Source: an uncultured delta proteobacterium (lineage in GTDB: Bacteria > Desulfobacterota > Syntrophia > Syntrophales > UBA8958). From it: a stretch of 64,000 nt of DNA. Below are positions 38,905-63,788 of the stretch, piece by piece. The DNA lies in the NCBI GenBank assembly GCA_903885795.1, contig CAISJV010000027.1, positions 22,943 through 86,942 of the forward strand, written 5' to 3'. The notes beneath the pieces are model-generated. The model saw only the letters and a list, made by a program, of their open reading frames with translations, ran no database searches and was not told the origin of the DNA. The position numbers and the translations under genes are program-made. The first letter of the stretch is position 1. Each line of letters begins with the position of its first letter.

Positions 38905-39058
38905 TGTTCCTCCAGCCAAGAAAATCAATATCTGCATTGCCCTATATAATGATAAATTTATCTTGACAAGGTAAAAAAAAAGCGTATGGTCTCCTTCACT
39001 AAAGGTGATTAGTATCATCCCAAGGTAATGAAATTATTGGAAAGGAGGTGACGCTTTA

Positions 39059-39319
39059 ATGAAGAAGGTATTTGCCATTATTCTTTCGCTGCTTTTCGTT
39101 GTGACGTTTTCGCTTGCAGTCGTTGGTTGCAAGAAGGCCGAAGAGCAGAAACCGGCTGAGCCGGCTAAGACCGAGGCTCCTGCCCCCGCTCCCGCGGCTC
39201 CTGGTGCTCCTGGTGCTCCCGCAGCTCCTGGTGCGGCTCCGGCGGCTCCTGGTGCGGCTCCCGCGGCTCCTGGTGCAGCTCCGGCAGCTCCGGCGCCCGC
39301 AGCTCCAGCGGCAAAGTAA
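39059..39319 (+). CDS. small lipoprotein with an Ala/Pro-rich tandem-repeat tail
   Basis: Signal plus lipobox MKKVFAIILSLLFVVTFSLAVVGC. Then KPAEPAKTEAPAPAPAAPGAPGAPAAPGAAPAAPGAAPAAPGAAPAAPAPAAPAAK. RBS GGAGG upstream and a terminator downstream. Confidence 0.6.
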   Translation: MKKVFAIILSLLFVVTFSLAVVGCKKAEEQKPAEPAKTEAPAPAPAAPGAPGAPAAPGAAPAAPGAAPAAPGAAPAAPAPAAPAAK

Positions 39320-39345
39320 TATAGAACCAAAAGTTCATCTTGAAG

Positions 39346-39380
39346 ACCGGGCATTTGATATTCGAATGCCCGGTTTTTTA
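39346..39380 (+). terminator. intrinsic terminator
   Basis: accgggcat-ttgatattcga-atgcccggt followed by tttttt. Confidence 0.8.
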
Positions 39381-39450
39381 GTGCCTTAAAATGGCTTGAC
39401 AGCTGCCCGTCAATTGCTTAATAAAAAAGAAAAAACGGGAGGTGAAAAAT

Positions 39451-52711: not shown

Positions 52712-53578
52712 ATGACCGAAGAACGAAGCGCCAATGCCATTTTATTGCTCTCCTGTCAAGACCAGAAGGGCCTGGTCTATAATATCTCCAACTTTATTTA
52801 TCGCCATAACGGCAATATTGTCCATGCGGCGCAGCACACCTCGGTGACAAGAAAGATCTTTTTCATGCGGATCGAATGGGAACTAAACGGCTTTGTCATT
52901 CCCCGCGAGGAAATCGCCCTGGTCTTCAGGCATGTGGCCAGCCAGTTCGATATGAACTGGGAGCTGCATTTCACCGATACGATTCCCAGGATGGCAATTT
53001 TCGTGTCCCGCCATCCCCATTGCCTCTACGATCTCATTCTGAGACGGCAGATGGGAGAATTCCGGGCGGAGATCCCCTTGGTCATCAGCAATCATCTGGA
53101 TCTTAAGCCCATGATCGAGCAGTTTGGCTTAAAGTTCATGCACTTTCCCATTACCCGGGAAAACAAGGAGGAGCAGGAACAGCGAGAGCTTGAGGAAATA
53201 AGGAAACGCAATATCGACCTGATTGTCCTTGCCCGGTACATGCAGGTCCTGTCGAACCGCTTCGTAGGGGAATATCCGAACAAAATTATAAACATTCACC
53301 ATTCATTTCTTCCCGCCTTTGCCGGCTCGAATCCCTACCAGCAGGCCTATGACCGGGGGGTGAAGATCATCGGCGCCACAAGCCATTATGTGACGGAACA
53401 GCTTGACGACGGACCAATCATTGCCCAGGATGTCATCAAGATTAGCCATCGGGATGCCCTGGATGATATCAAGCTAAAAAGCCGGGATCTGGAAAGAACG
53501 GTCCTGGCCAAAGCCGTCCGCCTGCAACTCGAGAACCGGATCCTGGCCTACGGTTCCAAGACCGTCGTTTTCGAATAA
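52712..53578 (+). CDS. purU: formyltetrahydrofolate deformylase
   Basis: 288 aa with an ACT domain N-terminus and a formyltransferase core (INIHHSFLPAF.G..PY..A, GATSHYVT). Confidence 0.9.
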   Translation: MTEERSANAILLLSCQDQKGLVYNISNFIYRHNGNIVHAAQHTSVTRKIFFMRIEWELNGFVIPREEIALVFRHVASQFDMNWELHFTDTIPRMAIFVSRHPHCLYDLILRRQMGEFRAEIPLVISNHLDLKPMIEQFGLKFMHFPITRENKEEQEQRELEEIRKRNIDLIVLARYMQVLSNRFVGEYPNKIINIHHSFLPAFAGSNPYQQAYDRGVKIIGATSHYVTEQLDDGPIIAQDVIKISHRDALDDIKLKSRDLERTVLAKAVRLQLENRILAYGSKTVVFE

Positions 53579-53587
53579 CTGTTCAAA

Positions 53588-54403
53588 ATGATGAAAAATT
53601 CCGACCCCCATCTCTGTCAGCCCGACGAGTGTAAATCCTGCGGGGCCTGTTGTGGGCTCTATAACTATGCCGACTCTTCCCGTGAATCGCTTATTTTGCG
53701 GCTGAGGCGGAGAACGAAACTGTTTCGCCACGCCGATAAATCCCCGGAGGGGCTTCAGGCTTTCTCCTCCATGATTCAGGCTGCGGAAGACATGGCCAAG
53801 CGCTACGAGGTTATCTACTGCTGTGAGTACCTGGGATTTCTCGATGCGGGAGAGAAGCGCGTCGGCTGTCTTCTCCACCCCCTTCAGAATGGCGGCGTGG
53901 ATCACCGGGAGGTCTCTTTTTACGGCCGTGAGCTCTGTGATGGCCATTTCTGCCCAAGTTATCACTATATCTCCCGGGAAGAAAAACAGTCGCTCCTGAA
54001 TACTATCGATGACTGGTACCTCTTCGGACTGGTCATTACGGATATCGATCTGGTCAAATCATATTTCCAGCTGATCAGCGACGGGGTCTATGAGACGCCC
54101 TCGCCGGAACGGTTCAAAGAAGTCCTGCTCCGCAAAAAGGTTTTGTCCTTCTTTGATCTCAAGCTATCATGGCCCTTCCGTTCCGCCGATGTACATCGCC
54201 TGGGGAAATATTATTTTGACGGTTCCCAGTACATGATCAACCATATCGATTACGAGGACCTTGATTCGGAAAGATCTCGTTTCGACAGGATATTCCTGAG
54301 CCTGACCTCCGATTTTCGCAGTCGGGAAGACCTCCGGCAGGCGGAAGACCTGATTCAGGGTCATCTGGATGCCTTTATCCATGCTTATCAGGATAACCAT
54401 TGA
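53588..54403 (+). CDS. YkgJ-like CxxCxxCC (putative Zn/Fe-chelating) domain protein
   Basis: 271 aa. N-terminal CKSCGACCGLYNY, then further Cys/His motifs (YCCEYLGF, GCLLHP, CDGHFCPSYH). Confidence 0.55.
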   Translation: MMKNSDPHLCQPDECKSCGACCGLYNYADSSRESLILRLRRRTKLFRHADKSPEGLQAFSSMIQAAEDMAKRYEVIYCCEYLGFLDAGEKRVGCLLHPLQNGGVDHREVSFYGRELCDGHFCPSYHYISREEKQSLLNTIDDWYLFGLVITDIDLVKSYFQLISDGVYETPSPERFKEVLLRKKVLSFFDLKLSWPFRSADVHRLGKYYFDGSQYMINHIDYEDLDSERSRFDRIFLSLTSDFRSREDLRQAEDLIQGHLDAFIHAYQDNH

Positions 54404-54484
54404 TTTTTCGTTGACAAAGGACGTCATGTCGATTAGCATCCCTCGCATTATCTGGATGCTGGAACGGTTCCAAGGGGGGATCAC

Positions 54485-55012
54485 ATGGAAGCTATGCAAA
54501 AGGAGATTCTGTTCTCCCGGGATAACATCAATCAGCGCGTAACGGAGCTTGCCGCCGACATCTCCCGGGATTACGCCGGGAAAGAGCTGGTCGTTGTCGG
54601 CGTCCTCAAAGGGGCCTTCGTCTTTATGGCCGATCTTATTCGCTGCATCCAGACCCCCTGTGTCATCGATTTTGCGAGATTGGCGAGCTACGGATCGGGA
54701 TCGACAAGTTCCGGTCAGATCGTCATTACCAAGGACATTGAAATGGAGATTAAAGACAGGGACGTCTTGATTGTTGAGGATATCGTGGATACGGGTCTGA
54801 CCCTGTCTTTCCTTGTCCAGGCCTTTAAGAAGAGACACCCTCGTTCCCTGAAGATCTGTGCCTTCATGGATAAGAGGTTGCGCCGCAAGGTTGCCTTCGA
54901 AGCGGATTATGTAGGCTTTACCATTGACGATGGTTTTGTGGTCGGCTATGGTCTCGATTTCAATGAGAAGGCAAGATATTTTCCGGATGTTTACATCGTG
55001 ACGAATTTGTAG
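54485..55012 (+). CDS. hpt: hypoxanthine phosphoribosyltransferase
   Basis: 175 aa. VVVGVLKGAFVFMADL, VLIVEDIVDTGLTL. Confidence 0.9.
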   Translation: MEAMQKEILFSRDNINQRVTELAADISRDYAGKELVVVGVLKGAFVFMADLIRCIQTPCVIDFARLASYGSGSTSSGQIVITKDIEMEIKDRDVLIVEDIVDTGLTLSFLVQAFKKRHPRSLKICAFMDKRLRRKVAFEADYVGFTIDDGFVVGYGLDFNEKARYFPDVYIVTNL

Positions 55013-55019
55013 AGGCCTT

Positions 55020-55844
55020 ATGATTATTCAATGCCGAACCTGTCGAACAAAATACCGTTTTGATGAAGCCAAGATTCCTCATGATGGCGCCTGGGTCCGC
55101 TGTACCCGTTGCCAGAAGGTCTTTCTTCAGCATCCGCCCCTGCTGACGTTGGAAGCGGATAAGCGCGATGTTTCCGATCAGGCCGTTACCGCGGACCTGA
55201 AAACGATGGATATGGGCAATTTGGATGAAATTCAAGAATTTTCCGAAATCTCCGGGATTTCCGATCCCCGCCCCTCCGCAAAAAGGGCATGGATTTGGGT
55301 TCTGAGTGCGATCCTGCTGTTGCTGGCGGCGGGCGGAGGCAGTCTTTTCCTGTTCCCGGAATACGGTCGGATGGCAATAAAGGAATTGAATGCCCTTTTC
55401 CCGGGTCTGGCGTCGCTTATCTCCCAGGAAGCGCCGGCGCCTCTGGTCGGACCTGCCCAGGTCAAAATTGTGGATGTGAAACAACGTTTCGTCAGCAATG
55501 CCCTCCTCGGCAATGTCCGCATTGTCGAAGGCGTTGCCATGAACACCTCCCCTTATCCCATGACCAGGATAAAGGTCAGGGGGGAACTCTCGGATACGAC
55601 CGGGACAGTGGTGCGGGAGAGCTCGGCCTTTTGCGGGAATCTGCTGACAGATGAAGAGCTGGGGATCATGTCGGAGGAACAGATTTTACGGGAGTTGGCC
55701 AATCCCCAAGGCAGCGACATACCCAATGACAAGATCGCCCCGAATGGAACGATTCTCTTTATGATCGTCTTTATCCGGGAGCCCCCAGGGGTGATCAGGA
55801 CACTTGTTCTGCCCATCGCCGCTGAACGGCTCCTTTCTTCGTAA
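55020..55844 (+). CDS. MJ0042-type zinc-ribbon protein with one TM helix and a DUF3426-like C-terminal domain
   Basis: MIIQCRTCRTKYRFDEAKIPHDGAWVRCTRCQKVF. TM helix AWIWVLSAILLLLAAGGGSLFLF. C-terminal V.IVDV...V.G...N....P...IKV.G.L. Confidence 0.7.
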   Translation: MIIQCRTCRTKYRFDEAKIPHDGAWVRCTRCQKVFLQHPPLLTLEADKRDVSDQAVTADLKTMDMGNLDEIQEFSEISGISDPRPSAKRAWIWVLSAILLLLAAGGGSLFLFPEYGRMAIKELNALFPGLASLISQEAPAPLVGPAQVKIVDVKQRFVSNALLGNVRIVEGVAMNTSPYPMTRIKVRGELSDTTGTVVRESSAFCGNLLTDEELGIMSEEQILRELANPQGSDIPNDKIAPNGTILFMIVFIREPPGVIRTLVLPIAAERLLSS

Positions 55845-55902: not shown

Positions 55903-56448
55903 TTATCTTTTCTGGGTATCGTAGAGCTTTAGTATCCTGTCCGTGATATCGATGCTTTCCTCCGCGGTAATTACGGCCATGCGGTCCAGAATGATGGTGA
56001 AACGCTCACCCCGGGCATAATTCCTCAGGACCTGCATGATCTCGCCGATAACCTTCTGGGTTATTTCCATTTCTTTACGTTTGAGTTCCCCTTCCGCATC
56101 CTCGCGCAGGTACTGAAGTTCCCGCATTTCGTGCTTGATCTGATCTCCTTTTTTCTTCCGCGCATCCATGGCGCCGGGTTCGAGGCCTTTGAATTCTTCC
56201 TCCAGTTTCCGGACTTCCCCTTCCTTGGCGACAATGGCGGCCTGTTTTTTCTCAACATCCTTCATGAAGACGTTACGGACCTTCTGGGAGTTCTTTGATT
56301 CCCTGAGGATTTTCTGCATATCCACCATGCCGATCTTCTGGGGCCCACCGCCGACCGCCGCCTTTGGCGCCGCCCCGGCAGGCAGGGCCAGTAGCATAAT
56401 CATCAATAAAAAGGCCATCCACACTAAACATCTCATCTCTTTTTTCAC
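55903..56448 (-). CDS. OmpH/Skp-family periplasmic chaperone
   Basis: Signal peptide (MRCLVWMAFLLMIMLLALPAGAAP). QKIGMVDMQKILRESKNSQKVRNVF... is coiled-coil, Skp-like sequence. GTG start at 56448 lies 8 nt after GGAGGAG, with an alternative ATG at 56436. Confidence 0.8.
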   Translation of the reverse strand: MKKEMRCLVWMAFLLMIMLLALPAGAAPKAAVGGGPQKIGMVDMQKILRESKNSQKVRNVFMKDVEKKQAAIVAKEGEVRKLEEEFKGLEPGAMDARKKKGDQIKHEMRELQYLREDAEGELKRKEMEITQKVIGEIMQVLRNYARGERFTIILDRMAVITAEESIDITDRILKLYDTQKR

Positions 56449-56595
56449 TATCCTGACTCCTCCTTCGTTGGCTTGGGATGCTCTTAACTTCTTTTGCCCA
56501 TGAATGTAAATGGGGGGAAACAGATATGTCGGTCTGTTTCCCCCCATGGAAAGTTGTCGTCGGGGAGAGTCATAAAAAGGGTAATGACCTCCCCC

Positions 56596-59196
56596 TTACT
56601 TGCTCCCCTGGAACCCTCCGACTGCACGGCCGTAAGCTGAGTCGCCGGCTTTCCAGACGCCGCCTATGTATTTTCCTGCATCAGCCTTGTTTCCGTAAAC
56701 AGTCCCGGAGGCGCCCTTTTCGGTGGCAGTTCCTATGCCGTTGATCATCCAAGTACCGGAACTAGGGTTGATGGTAAAGGTGCTCGTCTGACCGGTCCCA
56801 CTGTTGAAGCTCCCACTGGCGCCTGCTATAGCGACGCTGTTCCCACCGCCGGAAACGTTGACGTTGAAGCCGGTGACGGCCGGGCTTGCAAAATTGACAG
56901 TGCCGCTGAAGGTTCCGGTCATGGCCGTCCCGGGACTGTTACCCACGAAGTACGTCCCCCAGGCGTTGCCGCTATAATTGGCCGTAATCATGTTAGACTT
57001 CAATGTAGCCATTTCGCTGTCCGTTGTCGCACTGCCCCAGACGTAGGCCCCTTGATTCATGAAGTCATAACTCGATCCGCTACCGCCCATTGACATGGTG
57101 TTGCTCTGCGTCCAGGTTCCCCATTCCATATATTCATTGGAGCCAACTTGGGAGATCGTGACGGGCTGACTTCCCGTCCATGTGCCACCACTGGTACCCA
57201 ATGCTACCATGTTCTTTGTTGCGCCCGTTCCGTCTATTTGGGTGGAATAGGTGTTGGCGTTATTCATGGCGTAGGCGTTGCTCGATTTGAAGTCTTCTAG
57301 CCCCGTGGTCAAATACGTATCCGCATAAGATCCCCCCGTGTACTCGAGCATCCCTGCAAAGTGGCCCATCTGTCCCATTTGTATAACGGATTTATTGCCC
57401 TGGAAAACACCGACGGCCCCCGTATTGTTAGTACTATTGCCCATGCCCCAGGCGCCGCCCATGTTGTCGCTGCTGGGCCCGTAGAGGGAGCCGTTTAAGT
57501 AAGTCTTGTCGGGGGTAACGCCGTTCAGGTTCCAGGTGCCGGTGCTTTGTCCCATTTGGAGGGAGGCGTCACTCGCGATAGTTCCGTAGGCGCCGTTAAT
57601 GGAGGCGTAGGCCCCGGGGCCCGAAACGTCAAGTTTAAAATTGGTCACTCTGGCGCTTGTGAAGTTTACATCGCTGCTGAAGCTACCCGTCATATTTATG
57701 CCCCCCGCTGATGTCCAGTAGGTGCCATAGGCAGGACCGCTGTAGGTTGCTACCACTGAGGCTGTCACCAGGGAAGGCGTATTGTAGCCGGAAATCCAGT
57801 AGGTCCGGTTGTCGAAGGCGTAGCTGGTGTTATCGACGGTAAAGGAACCCGGGACCGTCGCGTATCCCCATTCCATGTATGAGTTTTCTCCAATCGTGGT
57901 GCTGGAGATAGCGGAACTCAACTCTCCCGAGTTTTTGGTCCCTGAATCGAAAACTACCCACTTCAAGGTGGGGGTGCCGAATCCTCCCCCGCCGCTGTTG
58001 CCTAGAACCCGGGTATAATCCGTGCTGCTTTTAGCCCCTTCAGCCCAGATATTGGAATTCATGTCGTAGCGGTAGCGGCTGCCGAATCCCTCCATGAGGG
58101 TGCCACCCGTGAGGTTCGAAAGCATAGTTGCGAAGTACCCGACTTTGTTGCCCGAGGCGTTCGTTTTCGGGTCTGTCACGGGATCTTTTGCGGCGGCCTG
58201 TTGTTGTAAGATATTGTCATTCTGTTGCTGGGCTATACTCGATGTGTCAACCGTATTGGTTGTCGGAGCCCCCGTGCCGTCCGCAGTTGTTCTCGCATTC
58301 GGGGCGTTGCCGCTTGAGCTACCGCCACTGCTCTGGCCGTCGCTGCCTCCGCCACCCGGCGGCGGCACGTTTGTTTCGGCCTGGAAGCGCTGGGAAACCT
58401 GGGGGGGAGTAGGCATGAGAGTTCCGATTCCCAGGGGAGAGGACGACACCGTCTGCCCTGGTCCCACGTTCTGCGTTCTTCCGTCCACGGTCGAAGTGAC
58501 GGCCACCGTGCCATCGAAGCCGTGGACTGTCGTCGTGATAACCGGCGGCTGGTTCGCCTGGGCCAAAAGGAGGTGGCGCCCCCAATCGTCAGAGGCGTCG
58601 GCAAGAAGGAGGGGAAGCGCCCCGAAAGTCTTTTCGCCTTCTATGGTTACCTCCATACCGAATTTCGTCCCTCGGACGCCGGCAACGGCAGTCGGGCTTC
58701 CCACGGTCATGGTCGTGCCCTTCTGGCTGAGGAGGCGGATCGCATAGAACATGGCCTTGCCCCGGGCCATGGAGAGGTCAGATTTCTTTTCTGTCATGTT
58801 TTTATTTCCCGTCACCTCCTTGACGGTTATGCGGGTATGGTCACCGAGGGTGATGATGTCGTTGTTAAGGAGCTTGACGCGGCATTTGGAGGCCTTCAAT
58901 GTAAGGACGATATCCTGCTCGTAAAGTTTGTCGCCGTTTGCCGCAAAATAGGCCTGGCTGAGATCACCGCGGGCCACGACCACATGGCCTGTAGCCGTCT
59001 GAATCACCCCGGCTTCTTTGGTCTTTCCCGGTAGGAAGTAGTCCTTGACGCTGACGTTCTTCAATTCCCTGGGCAGGGCATCTGCAGGGGCCACGCGACC
59101 CCGGTTCTCAGCGGCGAGGCTGACGCCAGCCATCCCTACGCAGGCGATGATCGTGACGAGGATGATCAGGGTGAAAATACGCTTGTGGCAGTTCAT
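56596..59196 (-). CDS. secreted (possibly lipidated) protein: N-terminal FecR domain, Gly/Ser/Pro-rich linker, two TbpB-like handle + beta-barrel lobes
   Basis: 866 aa. FecR-like sequence (VIQTATGHVVVARGD...GDKLYEQDIVLT...GTTMTVGSPTAVAGVRGTKFGMEV). Linker PPPGGGGSDGQSSGGSSSGN. Two copies of the pattern YMEWG-x-(W/A) ... A-x-YSG-x-A-x-GTY ... MTG-x-FS-x-x-VNF-x-x-x-x-VT-x-F ... GG-x-W ... AVG-x-FQG-x-K. Confidence 0.7.
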   Translation of the reverse strand: MNCHKRIFTLIILVTIIACVGMAGVSLAAENRGRVAPADALPRELKNVSVKDYFLPGKTKEAGVIQTATGHVVVARGDLSQAYFAANGDKLYEQDIVLTLKASKCRVKLLNNDIITLGDHTRITVKEVTGNKNMTEKKSDLSMARGKAMFYAIRLLSQKGTTMTVGSPTAVAGVRGTKFGMEVTIEGEKTFGALPLLLADASDDWGRHLLLAQANQPPVITTTVHGFDGTVAVTSTVDGRTQNVGPGQTVSSSPLGIGTLMPTPPQVSQRFQAETNVPPPGGGGSDGQSSGGSSSGNAPNARTTADGTGAPTTNTVDTSSIAQQQNDNILQQQAAAKDPVTDPKTNASGNKVGYFATMLSNLTGGTLMEGFGSRYRYDMNSNIWAEGAKSSTDYTRVLGNSGGGGFGTPTLKWVVFDSGTKNSGELSSAISSTTIGENSYMEWGYATVPGSFTVDNTSYAFDNRTYWISGYNTPSLVTASVVATYSGPAYGTYWTSAGGINMTGSFSSDVNFTSARVTNFKLDVSGPGAYASINGAYGTIASDASLQMGQSTGTWNLNGVTPDKTYLNGSLYGPSSDNMGGAWGMGNSTNNTGAVGVFQGNKSVIQMGQMGHFAGMLEYTGGSYADTYLTTGLEDFKSSNAYAMNNANTYSTQIDGTGATKNMVALGTSGGTWTGSQPVTISQVGSNEYMEWGTWTQSNTMSMGGSGSSYDFMNQGAYVWGSATTDSEMATLKSNMITANYSGNAWGTYFVGNSPGTAMTGTFSGTVNFASPAVTGFNVNVSGGGNSVAIAGASGSFNSGTGQTSTFTINPSSGTWMINGIGTATEKGASGTVYGNKADAGKYIGGVWKAGDSAYGRAVGGFQGSK

Positions 59197-59214
59197 CGTA
59201 ACCTCCCGTGATAA

Positions 59215-60672
59215 TCAGAAATAGAACCCGACACTCAAGGTGTAGGTCTCTTTGGTAAAGCTGTAAAGCTCATCGTTTGAATGATTGTCGATATAGTTGA
59301 AGGCAAAGGATGTAAAATAATGCTTCAGGAACTCCTGGCTTACGACGGCGGAGACGCTTTGACGGCGGTCCACCCGGGAGTCATTATAAAGGACGGGCGC
59401 CGCCTTGTAGTTTCTTTCGCCGAGCTGGTATCTCAGAAAGAAATCCGTCTTCGTAGGAAAGCGGGTATAGTAAGATATTGCCCCATAAGGCGCCGTATAG
59501 GTGAAGTTTCGGGCATCAGCGATGGATAATTCATAGCCGATATTAAGGGAAACGATGTGGCGGCGGTTCATGAAAAAGAAGTTCGGTGTGATCTCGTAGC
59601 GCGTCGTAGTATTGTTCAGGTTGTAGTTGTCGCTATCCATGAAGCTCTCCTTGCTCCATGAAAACAAGCCCCTGACACTGAAATAAGGCGTGAAATAGTG
59701 TTCCATGGTCGGCCGGAAATAAGAAATACTTGACAGTGGTGAACTGCCATACTCCTGTTTGGCAAAACCAACGGGCAGTTTCAGGATGTCGTTTGGTCCC
59801 ACCCACCAGGGGCCCGTCGAGACGTCTCCGAGGAGGTAGTTGTATTGCCCGTAGTGGAAATAAGCCTGGTTGTAAACATCGGCAGTAGTATTCCACATGA
59901 AACCCCCTTTATCTCCGAAATCATAGAGGACGTTTCCAGAGAAATTCTCGATGGAGGCCCAATCGCCAAGCTTTTTCGTTTCGTCTTTGAGGGTCAGGGT
60001 TCCACCGGTCACAGAGAGTTCCTTCTGGTCCGGTCCACTCGATATATTGCTGTCCCATTGGAAACCCTGGGAGAATCGAACATTCCAGAACACAGTTTTG
60101 GTGCTTTCGTCGATCGCGGCAAGAAGGCGGTCGATATTTTTTTGGACATCTTGCGGCGGCTTGGACTGCTTGACGATTTCCAGTTCCCGGCGGGCCTCGT
60201 TGTATTGCTTCGCCTGGAAATAGGCCGCTGCCAGTTCGAGGCGTACCCGGTGCAGCCCGGGGTCAATGGCCAGCATCTTTTGAAATTTCACGATGGCAAG
60301 CTTCGTATCCCCGGTATTCATGGCGGATGTTCCCAGCCACCACATGAGATCCATCGTTTCCACGTCGGCGGAAATGCTGTTGAAGATGGGCAGGGCTTGG
60401 GCAAATTTCCCGTCGTAATAAAGGGTCAGGGCCTCTGCAAGCTTGTCATCCAGGCTTGCCACCTTTTCCGGCGACATCTTGCGAAGATTTTCGACGGCCT
60501 CCTTGTTGGTCGTCTGGAAATCCATATCCCCGGTGGGCTTTTCCGTTTCTGCCAAGGCCGGTGAGGTGTTGGGCGTTTGGGAATGGGCCTTTACGGTTAT
60601 GGTGAGGTTAATGGAGGTAAGGAGGATAAAGCAGAGCAGATATGGAAAAAGCCGTTCATACATGAGAGTCAC
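59215..60672 (-). CDS. Slam-like outer-membrane protein (N-terminal TPR region + DUF560-type beta-barrel)
   Basis: 485 aa with a signal peptide. TPR-like helices (LTLYYDGKFAQALPIF, AIVKFQKMLAIDPGLHRVRLELAAAYFQAKQYNEARRELE). About 300 aa of amphipathic beta-strand sequence ends ...FNYIDNHSNDELYSFTKETYTLSVGFYF. It sits 18 nt upstream of a TbpB-like gene. Confidence 0.55.
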   Translation of the reverse strand: MTLMYERLFPYLLCFILLTSINLTITVKAHSQTPNTSPALAETEKPTGDMDFQTTNKEAVENLRKMSPEKVASLDDKLAEALTLYYDGKFAQALPIFNSISADVETMDLMWWLGTSAMNTGDTKLAIVKFQKMLAIDPGLHRVRLELAAAYFQAKQYNEARRELEIVKQSKPPQDVQKNIDRLLAAIDESTKTVFWNVRFSQGFQWDSNISSGPDQKELSVTGGTLTLKDETKKLGDWASIENFSGNVLYDFGDKGGFMWNTTADVYNQAYFHYGQYNYLLGDVSTGPWWVGPNDILKLPVGFAKQEYGSSPLSSISYFRPTMEHYFTPYFSVRGLFSWSKESFMDSDNYNLNNTTTRYEITPNFFFMNRRHIVSLNIGYELSIADARNFTYTAPYGAISYYTRFPTKTDFFLRYQLGERNYKAAPVLYNDSRVDRRQSVSAVVSQEFLKHYFTSFAFNYIDNHSNDELYSFTKETYTLSVGFYF

Positions 60673-60821
60673 CTTAAAGAATGTTTGGAATTATTTCCGT
60701 TTTTAACAAAAAATGTTCCAAATGCTCGCACGCTGCAAAGGACACAAAGAAATCATGACGCCGTATGGCAGCAATGACTTTTAATGGCGGTGAACCTTAC
60801 CTCCCTTGCTTTGTGTCTTGT

Positions 60822-60851
60822 CATATAGAGTATACTTCATGAAATTGTCAA
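60822..60851 (-). promoter_or_regulatory. candidate sigma-70 promoter of the Slam-like operon
   Basis: Minus strand reads TTGACA, an 18-nt spacer, then TATATG. It lies ~150 nt upstream of the 60672 start, in the 234-bp gap after tsaC. Confidence 0.35.
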
Positions 60852-60906: not shown

Positions 60907-61539
60907 TTACCTCCTCAAGGCGACTCTGAGCGCTGCGTCTTGGATCGCCCCTTCCCGAAGCAGGGCCGGGGGATCGGCGGTTACGTCAAGAAAAGTCGAT
61001 CCCCTGCCGCCAGGGGTGGGGCCGCCGTCGATGACAGTGATTTGCACGTTTGTCATTTGCCCCCTGACCTCTTCGGCGGATGTGCATTCTCTTTCCCCGG
61101 AAAGATTCGCGCTGGTGGCGGTGATCGGACGGCCAAGACCTGCGGCTAGGGCATTGGCGATGGGGTGGCTGGAGATGCGAACTCCAATTTTACTGGTACC
61201 TGCCGTCAGACGCGGGCTGACCGATGGGGATGCCTCGAATACTATGGTCAAAGGCCCTGGCCAGAATGCAGTCATAAGTGTTTTGGCTTCTTCCGGGATG
61301 TTGTTCGTAATTAGATCAAGATCATCCTTTTTGGAAATGATCAGGGCGATGGGATTATTAAATGAGCGTCCTTTGATCTCAAAAATGCGATCAACAGCCC
61401 CTTCGTTCGCAGCATCGGCGGCGAGGCCGTAGAAGGTTTCCGTCGGGAAAGCGACAACGCCCCCTGCTTTTAATATTGTCACCACCTTTTCAATACTTGA
61501 GGGAGCAATATCGTTGGGATCGATATAGATAATGGCCAT
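60907..61539 (-). CDS. tsaC: L-threonylcarbamoyladenylate synthase (YrdC/TsaC family)
   Basis: 210 aa. [20 protein letters not shown]....P, SANLSGE. Confidence 0.85.
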
Positions 61540-61545
61540 AAATTA

Positions 61546-62058
61546 TCAAGACCTGATCCCCATAAGATTATCGTGTTTTAACGCCACATCCCTAGCCATA
61601 TCATCCACGAACTTTATCAATTTATTTCGCATGCTTTCATTTTCCAAGGCCAGAATCCTCACGGCGAACAAGGCCGCGTTTCTGGCCCCGGCCTTACCGA
61701 TGGCCATTGTCGCCACCGGAATGCCGCCGGGCATTTGTACGGTTGCCAGCAGCGCGTCAAGTCCCCGCAGAGATGTCGCATCGATGGGAACACCAATAAC
61801 TGGCAGCAGTGTTTCGGAGGCGATAACGCCGGCCAGGTGGGCCGCCGCCCCGGCCCCGACGATGATGACCTTTATTCCCCGTTGAGAAGCGTTTTTTGCG
61901 AACGTCGTCGTCCGCGCGGGGGAGCGATGGGCCGAAGTCAGGAATAATTCGTAGGGAATATCAAACTGCTCCAGGATTTTTGTGGCTTCTTCCATAACCG
62001 GAAGATCGGAGTCGCTTCCCATAACAACGCTGACGATGGGTTTGGCTTTAGGTTTCAT
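61546..62058 (-). CDS. purE: 5-(carboxyamino)imidazole ribonucleotide mutase
   Basis: [22 protein letters not shown]...TSAHR.P..., [14 protein letters not shown]. Start is at 62058, 9 nt after GGAGGA. The longer track ORF runs into a repeat hairpin. Confidence 0.9.
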
Positions 62059-62108
62059 TGATACGATTCCTCCTACAACTTTAGAGATCACGTGTTCGTA
62101 AATAAGTC

Positions 62109-62215
62109 CCCTTATCCTCTCCACGGGGAGAGGGTAAGGGCGGGGTTTATGTAGTCATTCCTAAATCTTAACCCATCCCCACCCCAGACCTTCCCTTGAA
62201 GGTGAGAGGGGAAAT
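62109..62215. repeat. G-rich interspersed repeat, copy 2 (inverted), plus an adjacent 14-bp-stem hairpin
   Basis: Hairpin cccttatcctctcc-acgg-ggagagggtaaggg (62109-62140). Positions 62165-62215 are the reverse complement of the 48.7 kb element, with core ttaacccatccccacccca at 62168-62186. Confidence 0.75.
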
Positions 62216-62219
62216 CTAT

Positions 62220-63788
62220 TTAGTGTTTGAAATGCCGTTTCCCCGTGAAAATCATCGTGATGCCGTGTTCATTTGCCGCCTGGATGGCCTCTTCGTCCCG
62301 GACGGAACCGCCTGGCTGGATGATGGCCGTAACCCCCGCTACGGCAGCCATGTCAATGCCGTCCCGGAAGGGGAAGAAGGCGTCCGAGGCCAGGACTGTT
62401 CCCTCCGTGGGCAGCAGTGACTTCATTTTGGCGATCTTGACGGAATCCACCCGGCTCATCTGGCCGGCCCCGACGCCGACGAGCTGATCCTTCGTAGCGT
62501 AGACGATAGCGTTGGATTTGACATGCTTGACGATCCGCCAGGCGAAATCGAGGGCCTGGTATTCCTCTTCCGTGGGCAGCCTCTTGGTGACGATCTGGGC
62601 CTTGCGGATGTCGAGATCATCTGTATCCCGCTCCTGGATGAGCAGTCCGCCAATAACCCGGCGAAAATCATAGCCTGTATGGGAGGAGGGGACGCTTTGA
62701 GGAATTTCCAGGACTCGGACGTTTTTCTTGGCCCCGAGAATGGCCTTGGCCTCATTGTCGAAGGCGGGGGCGATGATCACTTCTAGGAAAACCTTGGCTA
62801 ATTCTTCCGCTGTCTTCGCGTCCACGGTCCGGTTGAGGGCCACAATGCCGCCAAACGCCGACACGGGGTCAGTCTTCAAGGCCTTCTGATAGGCTGTCAC
62901 GAGATCGCCGTCCGAGGTCGCGGCGCCGCAGGGATTGGCGTGCTTGATTACCACCGCCGCCGGCAGGTTGAAATCCGAAACCATCTGCCAGGCCGCGTCG
63001 GAGTCCATGATGTTATTATAGGACAATTCCTTGCCCTGGAGCTGCCGGGCATTGGCGACGGCCGACAGGAGGGGATTATTTTCCGTGTAGAAGGCCGCCT
63101 TCTGGTGGGGGTTTTCCCCGTAGCGGAGATCCTGGGCCATGGCGAACTGGAAGGTGTAGGTTTCCGGGAATTCCTTCTTGCTGCCGTCGGGGTTTATCTT
63201 GCCGAGATAATTGGAGATGGCGCCATCGTAACGGGCCGTTAACTGAAAGGTCTTGGTCGCCAAGCGGAAATTTGTCGTTTCCGAGATCTTCCCGCCGGTC
63301 CGCTGCATTTCCTCAATTATTTTTGAGTAATCGCCGGGATCAGTGACAACACTGACGAAACGGTAATTCTTGGCCGACGCCCGGAGCATGGTGGGGCCGC
63401 CGATATCGACGTTCTCCACTGCTTCTTCCAGGGTGCACTCCTCTTTGGCCACGGTATCCTCAAAACGATAGAGATTGATGACGACCATGTCGATGAGGTC
63501 AATGCCATGGGCCTGCACAGCCTCGATATGTTTGGAATTGTCTCTGAGGGCGAGGAGTCCGCCGTGAATCTTGGGGTGAAGGGTCTTGAGGCGACCGTCC
63601 ATCATTTCCGGAAAGCCAGTATAATCGGACACATCACGCACTTCCAGACCGCTTTTCCGCAACTGCGCCGCCGTCCCCCCCGTAGAAAGGATTTCCACGC
63701 CAAATTTATTTAATTCCCTGGCAAAATCGATGATGCCATATTTGTCGGTGACGCTGATCAGTACCCGCTTGATGACGTTCAAATGCAT
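62220..63788 (-). CDS. purH: bifunctional AICAR transformylase / IMP cyclohydrolase
   Basis: 522 aa. [43 protein letters not shown], and a C-terminal ...TGKRHFKH. Confidence 0.95.

Follow-up and report, generated by a model that had tools for sequence, protein, structure and literature searches.

Type 11 secretion systems (T11SS) have been studied almost solely in host-associated Proteobacteria. In Neisseria, the outer-membrane proteins Slam1 and Slam2, which combine a tetratricopeptide repeat (TPR) region with a 14-strand DUF560 barrel, are encoded adjacent to their cargo (TbpB, LbpB, fHbp, and HpuA), and TbpB and LbpB are each built of two lobes in which a handle is joined to an 8-strand barrel (Hooda 2016, 2017; Huynh 2022). 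For Slam substrates, Skp has been documented as a holdase (PMC9090332). The locus described here lies in a 64,000-nucleotide stretch (the window) of contig CAISJV010000027.1 from an uncultured delta proteobacterium of the Syntrophales. It consists of three consecutive minus-strand open reading frames (ORFs) encoding a Slam protein, its presumed cargo, and an OmpH/Skp-like protein. An earlier reading made from the sequence alone (the sequence-only reading) had placed all three genes, and the motif series that recurs in doubled copies in the second of them, where they were also found in this analysis; only two start codons were corrected. The first two genes most probably form a two-gene Slam-type module whose cargo joins a FecR-like domain to TbpB-type lobes.

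Besides surface lipoproteins, T11SS are known to handle soluble cargo. HphA, which occurs with its Slam in Acinetobacter and other bacteria, and the HrpB/HrpC pair of Xenorhabdus (PMC8406197) resemble the window pair in several respects: the cargo is of the Sec/signal peptidase I type and is not lipidated, an N-terminal functional domain precedes a C-terminal 8-strand barrel, and the gene for the T11SS outer-membrane protein is adjacent. HphA differs from the two-lobed window cargo in being a single-lobe protein; it carries a haem-binding clamp. Moreover, HphA loci contain TonB-dependent receptors and separate FecIR regulator genes, whereas FecR is here fused into the cargo, and no receptor or sigma factor is adjacent to it among the neighbours defined by public gene calls (tsaC and purE upstream, OmpH and a Zn-ribbon gene downstream). 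The locus differs from the Neisseria systems in that the cargo has no lipobox or lipid anchor, carries an extra N-terminal FecR-like module, and belongs to a family with one to six lobes; the host is a free-living anaerobe; and no TonB-dependent receptor partner was found nearby by gene clustering and in three profile-scanned neighbours, receptors as such not being searched by profile.

That the translocon occurs in this lineage is not new, and the novelty that the sequence-only reading attached to it was overstated, since Slam homologues were already listed in Syntrophus aciditrophicus, Syntrophobacter, Desulfobacca, Desulfobacter, and Geobacter (Hooda 2017), and deltaproteobacterial nodes are included in the 2021 T11SS network table. 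In the T11SS network, all verified cargo proteins fall into one cluster, and the other nine clusters are without a characterised member. A survey of T11SS architectures (Grossman et al. 2025, PMC12282271), which found cargo by the neighbourhood of outer-membrane protein genes, described a variable N-terminus and a common C-terminal barrel, an arrangement also seen here; it covers clusters 1 and 3 only, with about ten architectures, and its main text contains neither FecR nor names in Desulfo- or Syntroph-. Where FecR is named in T11SS papers, it is always a regulator gene of its own in the vicinity of HphA loci, and no description of a FecR-lobe fusion was found in the literature. Thus, the cargo is, as the sequence-only reading had claimed, unlike the described Slam substrates, and its architecture, together with that of its modular relatives, represents a new form of a known type of system. 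What appears to be new is the order of a signal peptide, a FecR-like module, a disordered linker, and then one to six lobes.

The translocon

The product of the first gene, which the sequence-only reading had taken for a Slam/DUF560 protein, is assigned by profile hidden Markov models (HMMs) to the Slam/T11SS outer-membrane proteins (482 amino acids from its most likely start). In Pfam, the 485-amino acid ORF passes both relevant gathering scores, with 41.4 bits for TPR_Slam (PF24575; threshold 35.2) and 35.6 bits for SlipAM (PF04575, DUF560; threshold 22), the latter match covering profile positions 1-288 of 288. The low SlipAM score indicates a distant subfamily, which sets the protein apart from the Neisseria Slam proteins. 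A signal peptide and a C-terminal ...VGFYF are seen in the translation. The AlphaFold2 (AF2) model, built with 62 homologues, reaches a predicted local distance difference test (pLDDT) score of 89.9 and places eight helices in residues 53-190 and 14 long strands in residues 194-484, i.e., the TPR region and 14-strand barrel that had been expected from the sequence. The protein has at least 213 homologues. Both TPR_Slam and SlipAM are present in most of the 120 that were listed, and those with names belong to Syntrophales and "Deltaproteobacteria" metagenome-assembled genomes (MAGs).

A TPR region with a barrel is also found in BcsC and PelB, the top matches of the whole model in a Foldseek search of the PDB, and the protein could accordingly be read as a polysaccharide or polymer export porin of the PgaA/BcsC/PelB kind, with a periplasmic or outer-membrane accessory protein as its neighbour. 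This is very improbable. SlipAM and TPR_Slam lie above threshold and no PgaA or BcsC barrel family is matched in Pfam, while the NCBIfam BcsC model reaches just 13.6 bits and is confined to the TPR region. The barrels of BcsC and PgaA have 16 strands, against 14 here, and the barrel searched alone finds its best matches in the 14-strand CymA and OmpG (TMt, the Foldseek target TM-score, 0.5-0.74). Furthermore, glycosyltransferase or synthase genes are not conserved nearby in related loci, and the conserved neighbour shares the fold of known T11SS cargo.

The TbpB-type lobes of the cargo

The second gene encodes an 866-amino acid protein in which the sequence-only reading had recognised two TbpB-type lobes of handle and barrel; the AF2 model, Foldseek, and lobe profiles all agree with this. 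All five motif pairs occur twice, with YMEWG at residues 440 and 689, AxYSGxAxGTY at 483 and 739, MTGxFSxxVNFxxxxVTxF at 502 and 759, GGxW at 580 and 845, and AVGxFQGxK at 594 and 858. They belong to an internal repeat of residues 353-610 with 611-866 that is far beyond chance (E 2e-33, 33% identity). For the AF2 model, 26 homologues with two lobes were used; confidence is high over residues 345-866 (pLDDT about 85-95), where each lobe consists of a beta-rich handle and then about eight barrel strands. The top 50 Foldseek matches in the PDB are exclusively TbpB, LbpB, NHBA, HphA (8gmm, 8glo, and 6om5), fHbp, and HpuA, with TbpB giving the best E-value (1e-11) and the C-domain barrel of NHBA a TMt of 0.70-0.76; as the two lobes are placed differently with respect to each other, TM-scores over the whole chain are low.

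The same relationship is found at the level of sequence profiles. At E <=0.02, a profile of 34 lobes (A3) matches only T11SS cargo among PDB sequences, namely the TbpB C-lobe (2.3e-8), LbpB (4e-5), and NHBA (1e-4), and the alignment passes through the C-terminal YGP-A-E-GG strands, a feature in which the lobes align with Neisseria TbpB and LbpB (YGP..A.E.GG type). A second, independent family profile (A4) gave the same outcome, and only such family profiles succeeded; the single cargo sequence had no matches among PDB sequences. Several relatives pass the Pfam TbpB_B_D model (e.g., P0096 with 28.5 bits), and among 70 representatives of the lobe family, 13 match it at E <=1e-3 and one matches FHBP_C.

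The N-terminal part of the cargo

FecR (PF04773) is the sole Pfam match on the whole cargo, at residues 97-187 (30 bits; gathering score 24); of the Pfam families anticipated by the sequence-only reading for the three genes, DUF560, FecR, and OmpH were thus found above threshold. The domain is shared with the FecR/PupR anti-sigma regulators. Unlike these, the cargo has no cytoplasmic anti-sigma domain, no transmembrane helix beyond the signal peptide, and no adjacent extracytoplasmic function sigma factor or TonB-dependent transducer, so that only PF04773, which lies behind a cleavable signal peptide, is held in common. In a search of PDB sequences, the family profile did not match any chain of FecR or PupR. 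Weak similarity in NCBIfam at residues 62-189 leads to the Leptospira proteins Lsa33 (E 2.9e-10) and LipL45 (E 8e-5), which are likewise envelope proteins containing a FecR domain without the anti-sigma part; unlike the cargo they are lipoproteins, and the scores lie far below the cut-offs (39.8 against 420). To our knowledge, LipL45 and Lsa33 have no TbpB-type lobes. The AF2 model is poor in the N-terminal third of the cargo and unusable for the FecR module (pLDDT <50). The linker is similarly of low pLDDT (residues 274-334, <50), and across the family the 80 amino acids before the first lobe have a median content of 76% Gly, Ser, Thr, Pro, Gln, Asn, Ala, and Asp.

The sequence-only reading associated the cargo with the TbpB-fold surface lipoproteins moved by Slam. 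An IIAC motif with cysteine at residue 19 does resemble a lipobox; however, Cys19 is replaced by Trp in the closest relatives, and a lipobox-like motif is present in only 12 of 103 cargo homologues. Because the cysteine is not conserved even in near relatives, the lipoprotein candidate was rejected. Conserved in the family is instead a signal peptidase I-type site (...AA|xNRG or AA|xxRG), followed by xxRG....LP.EL, and the signal peptide is probably cleaved by signal peptidase I after ...SLAA. With this site and no conserved lipobox, the cargo family is closer to soluble T11SS cargo (HphA, HrpC) than to surface lipoproteins. It is for the same reason, the missing lipidation, that lipoprotein-centred searches missed these proteins.

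Conservation of the Slam-cargo pair and variant architectures

A locus scan with one genome per species yielded 72 loci, of which 69 contain relatives of the whole cargo protein; in the remaining three, the similarity is confined to the FecR region. The 69 loci come from MAGs labelled Syntrophales/Syntrophaceae, Desulfobacterales, Desulfatiglandales, Desulfatibacillaceae, Ca. Desulfatibia, or Thermodesulfobacteriota, from others with generic Delta-/Proteobacteria labels, and from Desulfobacterium sp. N47. Among the 57 loci with enough upstream sequence, the Slam gene lies directly upstream on the same strand in 45 and elsewhere in the locus in 5 more, and several loci have two cargo genes. The Slam-cargo pair is thus strongly conserved in Desulfobacterota loci, including Syntrophales and Desulfobacterales, in keeping with the sequence-only reading. 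Gene clustering across the 69 loci revealed only three recurrent neighbour families: Slam, a TPR membrane protein, and a CHASE2 cyclase. The TPR membrane protein recurs near 10 loci and is probably linked only through TPR similarity.

The lobe is always C-terminal in family members and varies in number, with one lobe in 76 proteins, two in 26, and three, four, and six in one member each. A 1,959-amino acid orthologue in Syntrophus sp. SKADARSKE-3 (L075:11459-17338) has six tandem TbpB-like lobes and lies at the same site in the chromosome; in the representative library, P0337 has 5,730 amino acids and 17 matched stretches. A search of 1.84 billion representatives with the lobe profile gave 188 clusters (50% identity) at E <=1e-30 and 1,548 at E <=1e-3, so that the locus gives a large and well-defined cargo family to the Desulfobacterota branch. 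FecR precedes the lobes in 51 of 70 representatives, and others have OmpA-FecR, TPR-CsgG-like, or M23 N-termini. Two such variants, OmpA-FecR-lobe (L081:8001-10337) and TPR-CsgG-like-lobe (L082:934-3051), have a Slam gene directly upstream; an OmpA domain before FecR is also present in P0096 and P0255. The family shows the TbpB-type lobe to be a portable C-terminal module, fused to FecR, OmpA-FecR, CsgG-like, and M23 domains in one to six copies. In L082, a second CsgG-family gene lies downstream of the cargo variant in convergent orientation.

The OmpH/Skp-like neighbour

The third gene encodes a true member of the OmpH family (PF03938, 84.4 bits, E 1.2e-23), with 23 bits in the NCBIfam Skp model against a cut-off of 237. 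It lies outside the bamA-skp-lpxD-fabZ-lpxA cluster, between the cargo gene and a Zn-ribbon gene, and is 31% identical to the bamA-linked OmpH (P0405, L079; bamA-skp-lpxD). Its relatives form a tight group of 48-100% identity, apart from the bamA-linked gene. The Zn-ribbon gene (55020..55844 of the window, plus strand), whose product also contains DUF3426, is convergent with it.

It had been proposed from the sequence that the three genes constitute a complete module of cargo, translocon, and chaperone, i.e., a dedicated three-part operon with its own Skp. The OmpH gene does follow the cargo by 147 nucleotides on the same strand, the gene order is repeated in four related genomes (L001, L002, L004/L076, and L075), Skp is needed for Slam1-dependent display of TbpB (PMC9090332), and the distance from the bamA-linked skp means that the paralogue could be specialised. 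A dedicated operon is nevertheless improbable, and the claim is not sustained by the comparison of loci. Of the 49 loci whose downstream sequence is long enough, only 3 have OmpH after the cargo, even when an iterated HMM is used; all three belong to closely related Syntrophaceae and have the entire purE-tsaC ... Zn-ribbon-hpt context in common. In locus L080, the same paralogue stands in purD-purH-purE-tsaC-OmpH-Zn-ribbon (-hpt-purU) order with no Slam or cargo there. L077 has OmpH next to Zn-ribbon-hpt with unrelated genes upstream, again without Slam or cargo, and L078 has it at the Zn-ribbon-hpt site on a contig that ends on the upstream side. Conversely, L025 and L037 carry the pair at the same site (tsaC-Slam-cargo-Zn-ribbon) with OmpH absent. 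The OmpH-Zn-ribbon-hpt order is kept across Syntrophales contigs regardless of the Slam-cargo pair, and of the gene triplet that the sequence-only reading had put forward for a conservation test, the pair is conserved and OmpH is not. L078 also contains a tandem pair of OmpH-family genes at the Zn-ribbon-hpt site (L078:571-1702, on a Syntrophales-like contig), which suggests a local duplication of the Skp paralogue.

The spacer between cargo and OmpH adds to the case against a three-part operon. The RNA fold of its 147 nucleotides contains two strong hairpins (minimum free energy -57.5 kcal/mol, z -3.8), the second of which is terminator-like, with 15 bp and a U-rich tail. This second hairpin is kept in L001, where a compensatory change has turned a G-C pair into A-U, and is absent in L002, L004, and L075. 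Skp as a conserved part of the module was ruled out by the synteny counts, the iterated Skp HMM, and the comparison of contexts, which corrects an appealing but unsupported idea. The gene is best regarded, on this comparative sequence evidence, as a Syntrophales-specific Skp paralogue present at the site independently of the Slam-cargo pair, and the simplest account would be that, in one subclade, the pair lies between tsaC and the resident paralogue. This OmpH, or another Skp, may contribute as a holdase; linkage gives no support for that.

Proposed mechanism and topology of the cargo

A mechanism can be proposed from what the data show: that the translocon belongs to the Slam family, that the lobes are homologous to known T11SS cargo by fold and profile, that a lipobox is not conserved, and that the gene pair is. 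The 482-amino acid protein would be exported by Sec, and BAM would insert it in the outer membrane, where it would form a 14-strand DUF560 barrel with the TPR domain toward the periplasm. The cargo would likewise be exported by Sec, cut by signal peptidase I, receive no lipid, and be kept unfolded in the periplasm by a general holdase. Slam would then recognise the TbpB-type lobes, most likely via the C-terminal 8-strand barrel, which would serve as the targeting signal. The lobes would be translocated outward across the outer membrane, fold outside, and act as ligand-binding or adhesive units, and by default the FecR-like module and the disordered linker of about 70 residues would be expected to follow them. 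Published precedent exists both for soluble T11SS cargo and for a C-terminal barrel common to cargo types (PMC8406197, PMC12282271).

Several points weigh against a two-gene secretion module. Seven of the 57 loci have no Slam gene within the fetched flank. The PDB contains no Slam structure, so that the fold search could not tell a Slam barrel from BcsC/PelB-type exporters or confirm family membership; the predicted fold agrees with the Slam assignment, and membership itself rests on the profile HMMs. The window lobes remain below the gathering score of 26 for TbpB_B_D (PF01298), with 16.2 bits (E 0.016) for lobe 1 and no match for lobe 2. The relation to TbpB, for which the sequence-only reading had expected a TbpB_B_D match, is seen instead with the lobe profile; given the profile-level match and the relatives that pass, the lobes can be considered divergent but genuine homologues of the TbpB barrel. 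Furthermore, what is known of this clade comes from sequence and models. Finally, the N-terminal partners found in the wider family (FecR, OmpA, M23, and CsgG-like) are typically periplasmic, which is awkward for full secretion.

This last point leads to a different topology, in which the cargo spans the outer membrane: only the C-terminal lobes would be exported through or alongside the Slam barrel, the linker would cross the membrane, and the FecR-like module would remain periplasmic. Such an arrangement is considered unlikely, and so is its elaboration, in which the FecR module would contact a periplasmic partner (a CHASE2 sensor domain or peptidoglycan) and function in outside-in signalling or anchoring, like an inverse autotransporter with a separate barrel. 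It draws on FecR (PF04773) being a periplasmic signalling domain in the FecR/PupR family (PMC5498481) and on the Slam-linked variants. An OmpA-type peptidoglycan-binding domain ahead of FecR (P0096, P0255, and L081) makes little sense in a fully secreted protein, which allows for a membrane-spanning arrangement, and the TPR-CsgG-like N-termini (including that of L082) point in the same direction. A possible periplasmic retention of the N-terminus is thus hinted at by the OmpA-FecR and CsgG-like variants. The length and disorder of the linker would suit a segment that crosses the membrane; however, the anchor peptide of TbpB has both properties as well, and the linker is therefore not diagnostic.

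In addition, a gene for a CHASE2-adenylate/guanylate cyclase of about 750 amino acids lies just downstream of the cargo, in convergent orientation, in eight Desulfobacterales loci (L020, L022, L027, L031, L034, L035, L042, and L053; e.g., L031:3667-5925, minus strand). Signal-peptide FecR proteins beside CHASE2 genes are known from Burkholderia, in which a LysM-FecR protein is paired with a CHASE2 kinase (PMC5192318), and from Sinorhizobium meliloti, in which SMc02177 is near the CyaD1 cyclase (PMC5498481); unlike the cargo, these FecR proteins have neither TbpB lobes nor a Slam partner. The eight CHASE2 loci are close relatives and hence not independent, and no CHASE2 gene was found within the window. 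Partial translocation by Slam is without precedent. Moreover, the NCBIfam names of Lsa33 ("surface adhesin") and LipL45 ("lipoprotein") suggest that a FecR domain may also work outside the cell, and the poor AF2 model of the FecR module is of little help to a periplasmic placement. It is the relatedness of the CHASE2 loci and their absence from the window, the Leptospira names, and the lack of precedent that keep the probability of a membrane-spanning cargo low.

By the same token, it is doubtful, though conceivable, that FecR-lobe proteins act in two compartments, with the lobes displayed via Slam and the FecR module, tied to peptidoglycan by an OmpA domain in some relatives, relaying the binding of a surface ligand to periplasmic sensors such as CHASE2 cyclases. 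If true, cell-surface signalling would have a new form that works without TonB, and a type 11 system would for the first time be seen to translocate only part of its substrate. The fusion of lobes to normally periplasmic domains in any case poses a testable question, namely whether the whole substrate is moved by Slam or part of it is left behind. Complete secretion of the cargo by the two-gene module is retained here as the preferred reading.

Organization of the locus

The coordinates of the locus are collected in Table 1. The Slam ORF extends to a GTG at 60672, which corresponds to the 485 amino acids of the sequence-only reading, whereas the most likely start, judged by the context of the ribosome-binding site (RBS) and by independent public gene calls, is the ATG at 60663. 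On the same grounds, the Skp-like gene starts at GTG 56448, so that its gap to the cargo is 147 rather than 148 nucleotides; in the 214-amino acid version of this ORF, the ATG falls within the second RNA hairpin of the spacer. The earlier values for the cargo (866 amino acids) and for the spacer between Slam and cargo (18 nucleotides) stood, and the cargo start is preceded by a GGGAGG RBS. Public contigs with identical proteins carry independent calls of 482 amino acids for Slam, 866 for the cargo, and 181 for OmpH.

Table 1. Features of the Slam-cargo locus and its OmpH/Skp-like neighbour (window coordinates; residue numbers of Slam refer to the 485-amino acid ORF)
Feature	Position	Strand	Basis
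Slam/type 11 secretion system outer-membrane protein (assigned by profile)	59215..60663	-	Pfam TPR_Slam and SlipAM above gathering scores; AF2 pLDDT 89.9; public gene call of 482 amino acids with the same Pfam families
Slam periplasmic TPR domain, residues 53-190, eight helices (predicted)	60103..60516	-	AF2 secondary structure; TPR_Slam match at residues 94-163
Slam 14-strand beta-barrel (DUF560/SlipAM), residues 194-485, C-terminal ...VGFYF (predicted)	59218..60093	-	SlipAM match at residues 196-485; AF2; nearest solved barrels
Cargo gene, 866 amino acids: signal peptide, FecR-like module, disordered linker, two TbpB-type lobes	56596..59196	-	Pfam, repeat, AF2, Foldseek, profiles, public gene call
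Cargo signal peptide, residues 1-29	59110..59196	-	Family alignment
Cargo FecR-like module, residues ~30-275 (Pfam FecR at 97-187)	58372..59109	-	Pfam, NCBIfam
Cargo Gly/Ser/Thr/Pro/Gln-rich low-complexity linker, residues ~276-344	58165..58371	-	pLDDT <50; family composition
Cargo lobe 1, residues 345-610: beta-rich handle and 8-strand barrel	57367..58164	-	AF2 pLDDT ~85-93; sub-threshold TbpB_B_D; lobe HMM at residues 351-602
Cargo lobe 2, residues 611-866: handle and C-terminal 8-strand barrel, presumed T11SS targeting domain	56599..57366	-	AF2 pLDDT ~82-96; internal repeat; lobe profile
Hairpin 1, directly after the cargo stop codon	56562..56595	-	Spacer RNA fold
Hairpin 2, terminator-like: perfect 15-bp stem, 8-nt loop, then UUUACAUU	56510..56547	-	Spacer RNA fold
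OmpH/Skp-family paralogue, 181 amino acids, GTG start; neighbour, not a conserved part of the module	55903..56448	-	Pfam OmpH E 1.2e-23; context analysis

The module is flanked (52712..55012 and 60907..63788 of the window) by purH, purE, and tsaC upstream and by hpt and purU downstream. Purine and one-carbon gene flanks are also found in clusters 1 and 3 of Grossman 2025 (PMC12282271), where co-occurrence of T11SS with nucleotide and one-carbon metabolism is reported; yet L080 has the same context without the module, and this neighbourhood was rejected as a functional clue. A promoter scan for minus-strand sigma-70 sites upstream of the Slam gene found none, counts not being above those of shuffled controls, and PADLOC defence models gave no matches. 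Neither a second Slam nor a second cargo copy was found within the window. Elsewhere in the window, a tandem repeat with a period of 21/42 and about 3-6 copies is located at 39171..39306, inside an Ala/Gly/Pro-rich minus-strand candidate ORF (39037..39417).

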